Origin: a virus
Taxonomy: Duplodnaviria; Heunggongvirae; Uroviricota; Caudoviricetes
Virus record (IMG/VR): IMGVR_UViG_2529292922_000011
Reading direction: 5' to 3' (one strand)
Length of the DNA stretch: 28,806 nt
Shown: one piece after another, positions 11,048 through 13,401 of the stretch
How the letters are laid out: every line of letters begins with the position of its first letter
How positions within the stretch are numbered: the stretch's first letter is position 1
Position numbers and translations under genes: made by a program
Notes under the pieces: generated by a model
What the model was told of the DNA's origin: nothing
Seen by the model: the letters and a program-made list of their open reading frames with translations, nothing else
Database searches by the model: none

Positions 11048-11458
11048 ATGGCAATATCTGCAGGTCGTCTGACACAGATGATAAGTGTTCTGAATCGGGT
11101 GTTAACCCGTAACGCTGCCGGAGAAATGACGGAAGAATGGGTGTCATGCGGGAAAATTCATGCGGATATCCGTGGCAGGAGCAGCCGGGAGCGGATGCAG
11201 TCCGGTGCGGAAATGGCGCAGGCGGAAATCCGCATCTGGGTGCGCGGTCAGTCCGGTCGGGAAATCACGGCAGCGTCACGACTTCATGTGCTGAGTGGTC
11301 CATGGCGTGACCGGATCCTGAACGTTGTCGGGCTGCCCGTGCCGGATGCGACCGGCGGGCGTCTGGAAATTCTCTGTCGGCTGGGCTGTCTCTTGATCAG
11401 ATCTCCTGATCAAGAGACTTCATCACCAGGTAACCCTCAACCATATCCTGAAGTCTGA
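11048..11458 (+). CDS. Head-tail adaptor / head closure protein (gp7-like), 3' end replaced by an IS insertion
   Basis: Family-like core through ...GGRLEILCRLG; from 11386 the reading frame runs into the IS end, giving a foreign 22-aa tail. The predicted original gene ended 11048..11385 + 12946..12960 (see findings). Confidence 0.7.
   Translation: MAISAGRLTQMISVLNRVLTRNAAGEMTEEWVSCGKIHADIRGRSSRERMQSGAEMAQAEIRIWVRGQSGREITAASRLHVLSGPWRDRILNVVGLPVPDATGGRLEILCRLGCLLIRSPDQETSSPGNPQPYPEV
11376..11385. repeat. Direct repeat flanking the IS (left copy), GTCGGCTGGG
   Basis: Identical 10-mer immediately outside both IS termini (11376-11385 and 12936-12945). Confidence 0.6.
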
Positions 11459-12935
11459 ACCAGCCATCCCACATGACTACCCAACCGGGGCGACCGGTGC
11501 GTTTGCTGTCATGCCATCGCCCCAGTTTCGCCAGTTTCAGACAGGCCCATTTCAGTGTCGGCATCTGTGACGGAAGCGGTTTTCCTTCCAGCTTAACCCA
11601 CAGCAGTTTCCACTCTGTCGGCGTCAGTATTTTCTCACAGCTGTCATTTTGTGTTTCTTCACTGATACCGCCCTGCCGCAGGCCCAGCACCCGCACCGCG
11701 ATAAACGCCTTGATAACCACCATGCGCTCGAGGTTATCCCGGGTCTGCATTCGCAGCGATTCCACACATGTACCACCACTTTTCCACGCCTTGTGGTATT
11801 CCTCTATCAGCCAGCGTCGCTCGTAATGGCTGACGATACGTCGCGCATCGGCGGCACTCGCCACTTTTTCTGACGTCAGCAGATGCCAGCAGGCGCCGTC
11901 CTCTGCCTGCTCCCGGCAACAGACATACGTGAGCGGGAGCGCCTGGCCGCTGTTGTCGGGATTTTTTATGCTGACTTCGCTGTAACTGATGAACATCCGG
12001 GCCTGGCGGGCTGCCCGCCCGCCTTTTTGCATCACATTCAGCGTGTGGCTTCCCGCGGTTGCCAGGACTTCCGGCAGTTCGAAGAGCTTGCCGGGTGCTT
12101 CTTCCAGCCGGCGATTCTGTGCTGCACGCACCACGAAGCGCTGCCCGTGGCTGACTTTATAATGCAGGTAATGCCAGATATCCGCTTCCCGGTCACAGAC
12201 AGTGATTACCCGTTTCTGTATCTCCCCCAGCCGTTCGGCCATGCGCTCCGAAGCCTGCTGCCAGCGGTAACTTTCTTTTTCTTCATAGGGACGTTCTTTT
12301 CGCTGGTGCTTAACACCGTAGGTGTCCGTGGCACGACTCCAGCGCTGCTGTTCGATAAGACCGACTGGCAGGGCGCTGTCGGGGGCGTACATCAGGACAG
12401 AGTGAGCCAGCAGCCCGCGCGTCTTCGGGTTAGTGGTGGTATTCCCCAGGTCATCAGATGCCGTACTGTGACTGAAGTTAATGGTGGTGGTGTCTTCCAG
12501 CGCGAGGAGCAGCGGATGAGCCTCACATGCCCTTACAGTGGCGGTAAATCCGGCTTCGGCAATGGCTTGCGGGGACACAGACGGGTTACGTATCAGGCGG
12601 TACGCACCTTCAACCTGAGCAGTGGACTGGGATGATTTCACAATAGAAAGACCTGCATGCTGAGCGAGAGAAGAGGCCAGTGACACAAGGCGTCGTGTAC
12701 GACGCGGATCACCGAGACGGGCATGTCAAAACTGCTCGTTAGCCCATGAATAACAATCAGAAAGTACCATAACAGACCCGAAGAAAATGAAATATAAGAG
12801 AAGATCAACGGGTGAGGAAAAAGTTCAAAAAATCGCTGCCGGGGAGGAAGGAAACTACCGGATGGAAAGAGTCCCCCTAAAGCAGACTGACAGACATCAC
12901 AAATCCCCGGGTGGGGATTTGTGTATAAGAGACAG
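11386..12935 (-). mobile_element. IS50-like insertion sequence (IS4 family)
   Basis: Left terminus CTGTCTCTTGATCAGATCT (11386-11404) is identical to the Tn5/IS50 inside end; right terminus reads CTGTCTCTTATACACAAATC on the other strand (12916-12935), very close to the IS50 outside end; encloses a Tn5-like transposase gene; flanked by a direct repeat. Confidence 0.8.
11397..12686 (-). CDS. IS50-like DDE transposase (Tn5 Tnp homolog); upstream in-frame TGA suggests N-terminal truncation
   Basis: Blocks EGAYRLIRNPSVS, LLALEDTT, VITVCDREADIW, YERRWLIEEYHKAWKSGG, DNLERMV, LGRWHDSKRTG align with Tn5 transposase (recalled). The homologous frame continues upstream to ATG 12770 but contains TGA at 12726-12728. 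Confidence 0.8.
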   Translation of the reverse strand: MSLASSLAQHAGLSIVKSSQSTAQVEGAYRLIRNPSVSPQAIAEAGFTATVRACEAHPLLLALEDTTTINFSHSTASDDLGNTTTNPKTRGLLAHSVLMYAPDSALPVGLIEQQRWSRATDTYGVKHQRKERPYEEKESYRWQQASERMAERLGEIQKRVITVCDREADIWHYLHYKVSHGQRFVVRAAQNRRLEEAPGKLFELPEVLATAGSHTLNVMQKGGRAARQARMFISYSEVSIKNPDNSGQALPLTYVCCREQAEDGACWHLLTSEKVASAADARRIVSHYERRWLIEEYHKAWKSGGTCVESLRMQTRDNLERMVVIKAFIAVRVLGLRQGGISEETQNDSCEKILTPTEWKLLWVKLEGKPLPSQMPTLKWACLKLAKLGRWHDSKRTGRPGWVVMWDGWFRLQDMVEGYLVMKSLDQEI

Positions 12936-12945
12936 GTCGGCTGGG
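12936..12945. repeat. Direct repeat flanking the IS (right copy), GTCGGCTGGG
   Basis: See left copy; Tn5-type elements make 9-bp duplications, so a 9-bp duplication plus one chance base is likely. Confidence 0.6.
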
Positions 12946-12954
12946 AGGGGAAAA

Positions 12955-13401
12955 ATGATCGAAACCCTGCTGGATTTTTCGGGGCTGGAGGACATCAGCC
13001 GCGATTTGCAGCTTCTGAGTGGTGCGGAAAATAACCGGGTGCTGCGTGAGGCAACCCGTGCGGGTGCGAATGTGCTGAAAGAAGAAGTGGTGTCACGGGC
13101 ACCGGTACGCAGGGGAAAACTGCGCCGCAATGTGGTGATCCTTTCCCGGCGCTCCCGCGATGGCGGGATGGAATCCGGTGTCCATATCCGTGGTGTTAAT
13201 CCGGACACCGGTAACAGCGATAACACTATGAAGGCGGATAACCCGCGCAATGCTTTCTACTGGCGGTTTGTGGAAATGGGGACTGTGAATATGCCACCGC
13301 ACCCGTTTGTGCGCCCGGCGTTTGATGTGCGCAGTGAACAGGCAGCTCAGGTGGCGATTGCGCGGATGAACCGGGCCATTGATGAGGTACTGAGACGATG
13401 A
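12955..13401 (+). CDS. Tail completion protein (HK97 gp10-like)
   Basis: 148-aa product, ATG behind GGGAGGGG RBS; position and size fit gp10-like proteins; C-terminal NPRNAFYWRFVEMGT...HPFVRPAFD motif. The track ORF 12787..13401 includes IS-end sequence upstream. Confidence 0.7.
   Translation: MIETLLDFSGLEDISRDLQLLSGAENNRVLREATRAGANVLKEEVVSRAPVRRGKLRRNVVILSRRSRDGGMESGVHIRGVNPDTGNSDNTMKADNPRNAFYWRFVEMGTVNMPPHPFVRPAFDVRSEQAAQVAIARMNRAIDEVLRR

Follow-up and report, generated by a model that had tools for sequence, protein, structure and literature searches.

One copy of ISEc13, an IS50-like element of the IS4 family, appears to have transposed recently into the 3' end of the head closure gene of an E. 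coli prophage. We give this account as a whole a probability of about 0.93, and nothing contradicts the insertion itself. The window, by which we mean the whole 28,806-nt stretch of viral DNA that was analysed (IMG/VR record IMGVR_UViG_2529292922_000011), derives from a prophage of the long-tailed lambdoid type whose relatives include Stx phage 2851 and one of the prophages of EPEC E2348/69. The features on which the argument depends are these, in window coordinates:

11048–11458, plus strand: head closure (Hc1, or "head-tail adaptor") gene, interrupted; from the list of open reading frames and its translation
11376–11385: left copy of the 10-bp target-site duplication GTCGGCTGGG, preceded by the half-site CTCT at 11372–11375
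11386–12935, minus strand: complete ISEc13, 1550 bp, IS4 family, IS50-like; by nucleotide match to annotated copies
11386–11404, plus strand: left terminal inverted repeat CTGTCTCTTGATCAGATCT; from the sequence
11397–12770, minus strand: transposase gene of 457 codons with an in-frame TGA at codon 15; from its translation
12005–12033, plus strand: terminator-like hairpin inside the IS, seven G-C pairs followed by T5; a consensus match only
12917–12935, minus strand: right terminal inverted repeat, reading CTGTCTCTTATACACAAAT on the minus strand; from the sequence
12936–12945: right copy of the 10-bp target-site duplication, followed by the half-site AGGG at 12946–12949
12943–12950, plus strand: Shine-Dalgarno sequence GGGAGGGG of the downstream gene, 4–6 nt before its ATG; read from the sequence
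12955–13401, plus strand: HK97 gp10-like tail/neck gene, 148 aa; Pfam PF04883, 38.8 bits against a cut-off of 21.4

The interrupted gene and its target site

The interrupted gene is predicted to encode the phage head closure protein. Removal of the IS together with one repeat copy leaves a 116-aa ORF ending in ...LEILCRLGGEK, just as the initial annotation had proposed, and the restored protein matches Pfam PF05521 (Phage_HCP) over residues 3–111 at 63.6 bits against a cut-off of 25, in agreement with the earlier placement of the IS in the 3' end of a head-tail adaptor gene. The restored protein also aligns with PDB entry 2KZ4, a "putative head-tail adaptor" (E = 1e-22), with the C-terminal EILCR.G.EK conserved. 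Pfam matches of the neighbouring genes place it between a gp6-like head-tail connector and the HK97 gp10-like and tail-terminator genes, and the annotation of E2348/69 and phage 2851 agrees with this position in the operon; the HK97 gp10-like gene is annotated alike in both. In its interrupted state the ORF is a 136-aa chimera of 113 native and 23 IS-encoded residues (CLLIRSPDQETSSPGNPQPYPEV), with its stop codon inside the IS. The insertion falls at codon 113/114 and removes the last three residues (GEK); their replacement had been recognized from the start, with a tail counted as 22 aa that is in fact 23 aa long.

E2348/69 and many further E. coli genomes match the uninterrupted site at 100% identity, with one copy of the 10-mer, and supply the comparison with an IS-free allele in related strains that had been called for. 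The empty-site record spans 1990 bp, equal to 3550 − 1550 − 10. When the window flanks are aligned to E2348/69 (L003) they overlap by 10 bp (15826–15835), and a reconstructed 100-bp empty site matches that genome exactly. The IS was found at this prophage site in none of 5,426 complete genomes and in none of 93 matching phage records, and the left junction had no exact match among JGI metagenome contigs. Two other public assemblies contain the same junction: both junctions and the IS are matched exactly in GCA_900448265.1, and in GCA_965140055.1 the left junction lies in a 17.5-kb contig that ends 115 bp inside the IS. Because the element is one nucleotide away from the common ISEc13 sequence, its repeat is perfect, the empty allele is 100% identical in relatives, and the other complete genomes and the phage records examined all lack the IS at this position, a recent insertion is supported, as had been suggested, and the event would be confined to one strain lineage.

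The target site itself carries a clear signature of transposition. The 10-mer GTCGGCTGGG occurs exactly twice in the window, with no copy on the minus strand, and both copies directly abut the 1550-bp element; a chance match of two chosen 10-mers has a probability of ~1e-6. The identical 10-mer that the initial annotation described at both IS termini is a genuine target-site duplication, the empty site having it once. An 8- or 9-bp duplication extended by chance matches was considered and rejected, since a single 10-mer is present in the empty allele and the allele with the IS is longer by exactly 1550 + 10 bp. Elements of the IS4 family are described as generating direct repeats of variable length, approximately one helix turn (PMC2266710), and the 10 bp found here, with 7–9 bp at other copies, agrees with such a turn (about 8–13 bp).

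A comparison of 19 distinct ISEc13 sites revealed flanks of the form C-Y-C-(T) / duplication / (A)-G-R-G, in which C,Y,C and G,R,G are invariant (19/19); this target rule was derived in the present analysis and does not come from a curated source. The duplication is 8 bp long at 14 of these sites, 9 bp at three, 7 bp at one and 10 bp at one, the window site. The window half-sites, CTCT and AGGG, conform to the rule in sequence, but the spacer and the duplication measure 10 bp where 8 bp is usual. Once the window is restored, CYCT-N10-AGRG in its strict form is matched at the insertion site alone, and the strict N8 form is matched nowhere. That a 10-bp duplication is atypical for ISEc13 had gone unremarked in the first reading of this DNA.

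The unusual duplication can be explained because the half-sites lie 10 bp apart here and usually lie 8 bp apart. We hypothesize that both target strands were joined to ISEc13 just inside the inverted half-sites CTCT ... AGGG, and that repair of the staggered joints would then have duplicated the 10 bp between them. In more general terms, the inner borders of inverted CYC(T)/(A)GRG half-sites may be where the ends of ISEc13 are joined to the target, at any spacing of the two (7–10 bp). If this is true, the length of the duplication would be dictated by the target and not by a fixed stagger of the transpososome.

The element and its nonsense transposase allele

Over 1550 of 1550 bp the window element matches RefSeq-annotated copies of ISEc13 from E2348/69 and other genomes at 99.9% identity; the matched copies are annotated as "IS4-like element ISEc13 family transposase". 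Relative to the E2348/69 copy, 1549 of 1550 nt are identical, and the sole mismatch is at 12728 (A in the window, C in E2348/69). The ISfinder convention treats elements with more than 95% nucleotide identity as the same IS or an isoform, and the full-length near-identity of the window element places it within this definition, with the assignment resting on RefSeq-annotated copies rather than on the ISfinder reference entry. Judged by its sequence, then, the element in the head closure gene is the known ISEc13 (its ISfinder name), a Tn5/IS50 relative with a DDE transposase, and the original description of an IS50-like element was right and can now be made specific. ISEc13 has ~30 copies in EPEC O127:H6 E2348/69. 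The papers that a literature search turned up mention it in passing, in resistome or mobilome lists only, and among GTDB species-representative genomes its left end gave only five short or contig-end matches (E. whittamii and one E. coli draft), from which flanks could not be read.

Both ends of the element start with 5'-CTGTCTCTT, as expected of an IS50-like element, and their first 9 bp are perfectly matched. The left end, CTGTCTCTTGATCAGATCT, we take to be identical to the inside end of IS50. A perfect 13-nt subterminal hairpin (11388–11400 / 11406–11418) encloses the left terminal inverted repeat, and a perfect 11-nt subterminal hairpin (12898–12908 / 12913–12923) overlaps the right one. 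The right end agrees with the Tn5 outside end CTGACTCTTATACACAAGT at 17 of 19 positions and with the mosaic end CTGTCTCTTATACACATCT likewise at 17/19, using the sequences printed in PMC3347997. The transposase has Pfam matches to Tnp_DNA_bind, DDE_Tnp_1 and Dimer_Tnp_Tn5 and aligns end to end with Tn5 transposase structures (E = 6e-84), and in this alignment EDTT, VCDREAD and Y-x2-R-x3-E-x6-K (YERRWLIEEYHKAWK) are conserved. The DDE triad and Y(2)R(3)E(6)K are hallmarks of the IS4 family (PMC2266710), and ISEc13 has both within a single transposase ORF.

The transposase gene of the window copy is not an intact 457-aa ORF. Codon 15 is TGA (12726–12728) where other ISEc13 copies have GGA (Gly), leaving a longest open stretch of 429 codons from a GTG at 12686, and we interpret the element as a mutant ISEc13 copy, not a different element. 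This nonsense codon had been overlooked in the initial annotation. None of the 5,426 complete E. coli genomes has the codon-15 TGA allele. The source strain has at least four ISEc13 copies that are identical over 1550/1550 nt, TGA included, in a comparison of alleles that is biased because copies were located via a 414-aa gene call, which favours TGA copies. Three TGA copies have duplications of their own, and every complete genome, E2348/69 included, is empty at their sites. On the same chromosome, the tauD copy (L028) has GGA at codon 15 and represents one intact copy, at a site common to another genome (L029), and the copy at the yccJ site (L024) has lost its duplication.

Since its own gene has a stop at codon 15, the transposase that moved the window copy most probably came from another, intact ISEc13 of that genome; a little full-length transposase produced by read-through of the weak UGA-C stop would be an alternative source. 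Trans-mobilisation of a nonsense copy is the less straightforward because Tn5-type transposases act preferentially in cis. Given at least four identical copies, three of them at sites empty in the other genomes examined, it may be the transposase-defective allele of ISEc13 that is on the increase in this strain. If so, a transposase-defective IS would be spreading efficiently, borrowing transposase in trans despite the cis preference, or, alternatively, the UGA-C stop might be sufficiently leaky to be an attenuator rather than a knock-out. The joint proposal, in which the codon-15-stop allele is expanding in the source strain and the spacing of target half-sites sets the duplication length, is a tentative one that we would rate at somewhat less than an even chance.

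Two other accounts of how this copy came to be seen where it is have to be weighed. The placement could be an assembly artefact in which a repeat copy was misplaced in the prophage, and there are clear homopolymer errors in the window's assembly as well as many ISEc13 copies in the strain to make this conceivable. However, the target duplication is perfect and sits at a site that fits the half-site rule, identical junctions recur in a second, long-contig assembly, and a fragmented assembly has the left junction with its contig break inside the IS; misassembly was rejected on the junctions shared with GCA_900448265.1 and GCA_965140055.1 and is effectively refuted. It is also conceivable, and in our judgement unlikely, that an intact copy inserted in cis and that the nonsense codon arrived after insertion by gene conversion among ISEc13 copies. 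Conversion of dispersed repeats can yield four identical TGA-bearing copies in one genome, and the yccJ-site copy without a duplication points to recombination between IS copies in that same genome, but conversion does not readily accommodate the three TGA copies with duplications at otherwise empty sites, and the sole intact copy seen in the genome sits at a shared site. It is simplest to suppose that what transposed was the TGA allele itself, though the sampling of copies is biased toward TGA.

Consequences for the prophage

The insertion of ISEc13 adds 1.55 kb that include an antisense transposase gene and a terminator-like hairpin, and the tail genes are separated from the head genes by this 1550-bp element with its minus-strand transposase, as first described. 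In the restored gene the TGA (12956–12958) overlaps the ATG of the next gene (12955–12957). E2348/69 (L003) has the same overlap arrangement, with head closure at 15498–15848 and the next gene starting from 15845, and an identical 4-nt overlap occurs elsewhere in the window at 4258–4261, 10712–10715 and 13398–13401. The ATGA overlap first described and its recurrence in the operon stand, with the ATGA at 12955–12958 in place of the 12955–12960 originally given. The insertion breaks this overlap and leaves the gp10-like gene 1.5 kb from the stop codon of the upstream ORF, and the Shine-Dalgarno sequence, which lies within and past the right repeat copy, is left intact.

The initial annotation interpreted the insertion as a recent polar mutation. 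Its recency is upheld, but polarity is only inferred and is probably overstated, given the retained Shine-Dalgarno sequence and the antitermination by Q that is expected. The hairpin at 12005–12033 lies on the strand along which phage late transcription runs; terminator-like sites on the plus strand of 10700–13500 number five, against 2.0 ± 1.4 in shuffles, all being consensus matches only. A promoter scan of the IS right end found no outward sigma-70-like promoter able to drive the tail genes. In phages of this type a Q-antiterminated polymerase transcribes the late operons, and Q-modified polymerase ignores terminators. A Q gene is annotated in the counterpart prophage of E2348/69, and because of Q antitermination, termination inside the IS should be blunted. 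With the Shine-Dalgarno sequence of the gp10-like gene preserved and read-through by Q-modified polymerase expected, we favour an effect at the level of protein and translation: any effect on particle formation would more probably come from the altered head closure protein and lower translation of the gp10-like gene, and less from polarity of transcription. The C-terminal change of the head closure protein might in turn be tolerated.

Two readings would leave the insertion with little or no consequence of its own, and we consider each of them possible but doubtful. In one, the insertion is silent or nearly so and not a polar knock-out, because Q reads through, the next gene has its own Shine-Dalgarno sequence and the 23-aa tail is tolerated. 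GGGAGGGG is indeed intact 4–6 nt before the ATG at 12955, but the translational coupling via the ATGA overlap is gone; the Q antiterminator is annotated in the counterpart prophage, but a strong terminator-like hairpin lies on the read-through strand. Only the last three residues of the head closure protein are lost, yet conservation of the terminal EILCR.G.EK as far as the distant homologue 2KZ4 suggests that this C-terminus matters, and the persistence of the insertion in at least two distinguishable assemblies is uninformative on phage viability where the phage is carried in a lysogen. In the other, the prophage was dead beforehand and the IS is a decay lesion among several. A G6→G5 frameshift at window position 9476 splits the portal gene, here as in the assembly L022, whereas functional phage 2851 and E2348/69 have a fused ORF of ~860 aa; a related assembly (L023), however, has the IS junction and yet G6 in its portal gene. 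The K-like gene has two frameshifts in the window, at 19802 and 19959, but these look like sequencing errors because they are absent from the otherwise identical L022, and all of the indel differences are homopolymer length changes. An IS66-family element at the end of the tail-fibre region, and the ISEc13 already present near Q in the E2348/69 counterpart, are consistent with decay.

Relation to known elements and significance

The window copy has the same 1550 bp and the same termini as the E2348/69 copies of ISEc13, with half-sites as at the 18 other sites, and differs from the usual ISEc13 in its codon-15 change from GGA to TGA, in its duplication of 10 bp versus 8, and in a site that is unoccupied in complete genomes. 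N-terminal DNA-binding, DDE and C-terminal dimerisation domains within a single transposase ORF are shared with IS50/Tn5, but ISEc13 is a different element whose protein is only distantly similar to Tn5 transposase. The Tn5 target duplication is 9 bp, whereas that of ISEc13 is 8 bp at most sites (10 bp here), and the strong preference of ISEc13 for CYC(T)-N8-(A)GRG contrasts with the weak Tn5 consensus. In the alignment with Tn5 transposase, ISEc13 has no Met at the start position of the Tn5 inhibitor (Inh). Because the duplication is not 9 bp and this Met is absent, we regard the element as IS50-like and not as IS50 itself.

Short inverted G/C-rich half-sites with a spacer, and direct repeats that vary in length within one element, are also found in IS231A and other IS4-family elements. 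The target of IS231A is GGG-N5-CCC. ISEc13, however, belongs to another subgroup, with 5'-CTG versus 5'-CAT at its ends and with other half-sites and spacing. Insertion of an IS in morphogenesis genes is a common route of lambdoid prophage decay. The present case resembles IS629 and similar elements of EHEC/EPEC in that a pathogenic E. coli lineage carries a lambdoid prophage with an IS within its morphogenesis genes; IS629 is of another IS family, and with only the last three codons lost here, inactivation is not certain.

Both the element and this ordinary kind of prophage mutation are already known, and the significance of the insertion is small: it adds one more case of a morphogenesis gene recently hit by an IS, here in a prophage of an E. 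coli related to EPEC. It can serve as a strain marker, and it is likely, though unproven, that it marks a step towards domestication of the prophage. What could interest transposon biologists is the private nonsense transposase allele, with several identical copies at lineage-specific sites, together with a half-site rule that appears to set the length of the duplication. The two observations are cheap to test and touch on how Tn5-like transposases act in cis or in trans and how they capture their targets.

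The element and the interrupted gene

Features of the window discussed here
11048-11458: interrupted ORF, 136 aa
11376-11385 and 12936-12945: the two copies of the 10-mer GTCGGCTGGG
11386-12935, transposase on the minus strand: 1550-bp element, beginning CTGTCTCTTGATCAGATCT and ending ATTTGTGTATAAGAGACAG
11388-11418: perfect subterminal hairpin at the left IS end, 13-nt arms and 5-nt loop
12005-12023: terminator-like hairpin followed by T5, within the IS, on the late-operon strand
12726-12728, minus strand: codon 15 of the transposase gene
12787-13401: 204-aa ORF, in frame with the gp10-like gene
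12898-12923: perfect subterminal hairpin at the right IS end, 11-nt arms and 4-nt loop
12943-12950: Shine-Dalgarno sequence GGGAGGGG of the gp10-like gene
12955-12958: ATGA, stop/start overlap of the restored ORF and the next gene

The element is identified by sequence as ISEc13, matching over 1550/1550 bp, at 99.9% identity, loci annotated in RefSeq as ‘IS4-like element ISEc13 family transposase’. Full-length copies are present in 874 of 5,426 complete E. coli genomes, and E2348/69 (EPEC O127:H6) carries ISEc13 at about 30 places. Its protein has the Tn5 N-terminal DNA-binding, DDE and Tn5 dimerisation domains (Pfam), matches crystal structures of Tn5 transposase from end to end (E=6e-84), and in alignment with Tn5 transposase keeps EDTT, VCDREAD and the Y(2)R(3)E(6)K motif, all hallmarks of the IS4 family (PMC2266710). 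At the right end, 17/19 positions agree with the Tn5 outside end and 17/19 with the mosaic end (end sequences from PMC3347997). Given these domains, alignments, motifs and end matches, the label ‘IS50-like’ in the initial annotation is correct, though the element is a separately catalogued IS, for which ISEc13 is the precise name. At its left end it has the sequence of the IS50 inside end. The subterminal hairpins overlap the terminal repeats at both ends, and may shield the IS ends or the transposase start against outside transcription.

The two copies of the 10-mer lie directly at the IS termini, as had been described, and are the only ones in the 28.8-kb window. In silico excision of the element and one repeat copy reproduces the proposed adaptor gene, a 116-aa ORF with the C-terminus ...LEILCRLGGEK whose TGA overlaps the next gene's ATG; the overlap stands, but it spans 12955-12958 rather than 12955-12960. 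The same 4-nt coupling is found between other gene pairs of the operon, again as described. Of the 136 residues of the interrupted ORF, 113 are those of the original, which leaves an IS-encoded tail of 23 aa and not 22. The restored protein scores 63.6 bits against Pfam PF05521 (cut-off 25), shows homology to PDB 2KZ4 (‘putative head-tail adaptor’) that extends to the C-terminal EILCR.G.EK, and is assigned as a phage head closure protein. Pfam places a gp6-like head-tail connector gene upstream of it and, downstream, an HK97 gp10-like gene, a tail completion/terminator gene and the major tail subunit gene. The prophage is classed as a long-tailed lambdoid type, like Stx phage 2851 and a prophage of E2348/69.

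Age and consequences of the insertion

An IS-free allele, with which comparison had been proposed, exists in related strains: the uninterrupted site is found at 100% identity in E2348/69 and many other genomes, with a record span of 1990 bp (3550-1550-10). When aligned to E2348/69 the two flanks of the window overlap by 10 bp, and the reconstructed empty site matches that genome exactly. An IS at the head closure site was found in 0 of 5,426 complete E. coli genomes and 0 of 93 phage records with a match, and the junction was not found in JGI metagenome contigs. The chimeric 136-aa ORF is recorded in four contigs of public assemblies. In GCA_900448265.1, a 5.12-Mb contig equals the window over 20.4 kb bar four homopolymer indels and matches both IS junctions exactly; in GCA_965140055.1, the same left junction lies on a 17.5-kb contig that ends 115 bp into the IS. 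The empty site in relatives, the overlap of the flanks and the shared junctions show that the insertion is real. It is limited to one lineage near E2348/69, as chromosomal flanks elsewhere are 99.9-100% identical. The perfect duplication, together with an IS only 1 nt off the common ISEc13 sequence, argues that the insertion is young, in agreement with the initial annotation.

The insertion exchanges the C-terminal GEK of the head closure protein for the IS-encoded residues, abolishes the stop/start overlap with the gp10-like gene and introduces 1.55 kb of antisense-coding DNA, including the terminator-like hairpin. Independent initiation of the gp10-like gene is plausible because its Shine-Dalgarno sequence is retained. 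A Q antiterminator is annotated in the counterpart prophage of E2348/69, and late transcription in this phage type is likely to rely on Q, which renders polymerase terminator-resistant. In view of the retained Shine-Dalgarno sequence and Q antitermination, transcriptional polarity is the weaker part of the first interpretation; a phage defect, if any, would more likely stem from the changes to the head closure protein or from the next gene being translated less. An ATG in the right end of the IS opens the 204-aa ORF, which in principle would allow a gp10-like protein extended N-terminally by 56 aa; the surroundings of the 12787 ATG showed no promoter-like site.

The counterpart prophage in E2348/69 (L003) has a different ISEc13 insertion, at 601-2150 (NC_011601.1 1443100-1444649), between the Q/tRNA region and the lysis module, with an 8-bp duplication CTGTGCGG; nleA and nleH effector genes lie downstream of its tail fibres.

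Elsewhere in the window, a G6 run (9471-9476) is shortened to G5 at 9476, as also in the prophage of GCA_900448265.1 (L022), splitting the ~860-aa portal ORF into 486 and 407 aa with an ATGA overlap between them. The ORF is fused in E2348/69 and functional phage 2851, both with G6; the GCA_965140055.1 contig (L023) also has G6. The G5 run may reflect either a genuine frameshift or a homopolymer error common to the window and L022. The C-terminal half of this ORF (9656-10249) contains ~162-bp (54-aa) tandem repeats, ...DGRDYDPDVLQKAVNDAVANIPQPADGKSLTPDDVRPMLEQMVKEAVSHIPVPR..., whose number seems to differ among assemblies (807 aa in L023, ~860 aa in others). The K-like C40/JAB tail-tip gene (19545-20290) is broken in the window by two +1 homopolymer insertions, at 19802 (A5 to A6) and 19959 (T4 to T5); these are probably assembly errors, as L022 is otherwise identical and lacks both, its gene being intact (247 aa). 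Single-base homopolymer differences also occur at 3416 and 5959 (intergenic). The window and L022 differ in homopolymer lengths only, so sequencing error probably accounts for at least some of these frameshifts. Just past the tail-fibre genes, an IS66-family element (27131-28660) contains a tnpA-like HTH ORF, TnpB_IS66 and the start of TnpC; the TnpC ORF ends after 161 aa and may be truncated or frameshifted.

Target site and duplication length

We compared 19 distinct ISEc13 sites from complete genomes and the source genome (L003, L009-L020, L024-L033, and window 11372-11385 / 12936-12949). Fourteen of them have an 8-bp duplication, three a 9-bp and one a 7-bp one; a length of 10 bp is seen at the window site only. 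Directly left of the duplication stands C-Y-C-(T) and directly right (A)-G-R-G, and 19/19 sites conform to this pattern at C, Y, C and at G, R, G. The window site, CTCT / GTCGGCTGGG / AGGG, has both half-sites, spaced 10 bp apart; it is the sole strict CYCT-N10-AGRG match of the restored window, which contains no strict CYCT-N8-AGRG match. Two 9-bp sites checked against their empty sites behave in the same way (araF-araG record span 1591). We hypothesize that the transposase attaches the IS ends to the target at the inner half-site edges, such that half-site spacing would set duplication length. Direct-repeat length is known to vary within one element in the IS4 family (PMC2266710). ISEc13 often targets a hairpin or terminator-like palindrome, in which the half-sites form the stem and the loop is duplicated.

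Proposed spread of a transposase nonsense allele

The sole difference from an E2348/69 copy is at window 12728 (A versus C), which changes codon 15 from GGA to TGA, followed by C; the transposase gene of this copy is predicted to be broken. A 61-nt probe centred on 12728 had no perfect match in 1,449 matching records (best 60/61), so none of the 5,426 complete E. coli genomes carries the TGA allele. GCA_900448265.1 contains at least four TGA copies, identical over 1550/1550 positions, which allow no statement on relative rates because the 414-aa gene call that led to them favours nonsense copies. A fifth copy on the same chromosome, in tauD (L028), has GGA and is intact.

TGA copies of ISEc13 in GCA_900448265.1
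L025: this prophage, head closure gene; duplication 10 bp
L026: ydfJ-ydfI spacer; duplication 8 bp
L027: araF-araG spacer; duplication 9 bp
L024: yccJ site; duplication lost

No ISEc13 was found at ydfJ-ydfI or araF-araG in any complete genome, E2348/69 included, and three of the at least four TGA copies occupy sites that are empty elsewhere. Most simply, the nonsense allele would itself have transposed several times; a rival explanation is post-insertion gene conversion, by which the nonsense codon would have been put into copies already in place. Under repeated transposition, the TGA copies could be moved in trans by transposase from intact ISEc13 copies. Alternatively, UGA-C read-through could yield trace full-length transposase, UGA followed by C being the weakest termination context in E. 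coli.

One flank of L024 (371763-379007) is the yccJ site, as occupied in FDAARGOS_144 (L013), and the other is unrelated fimbrial-operon sequence. These mismatched flanks, without a duplication, point to recombination between IS copies of the source genome, by inversion or deletion.

In other words, a known IS has made a genuine, recent insertion into a prophage structural gene, which is a commonplace kind of event; the half-site rule, which may set duplication length, and the proposed spread of the nonsense allele are its modestly interesting by-products.
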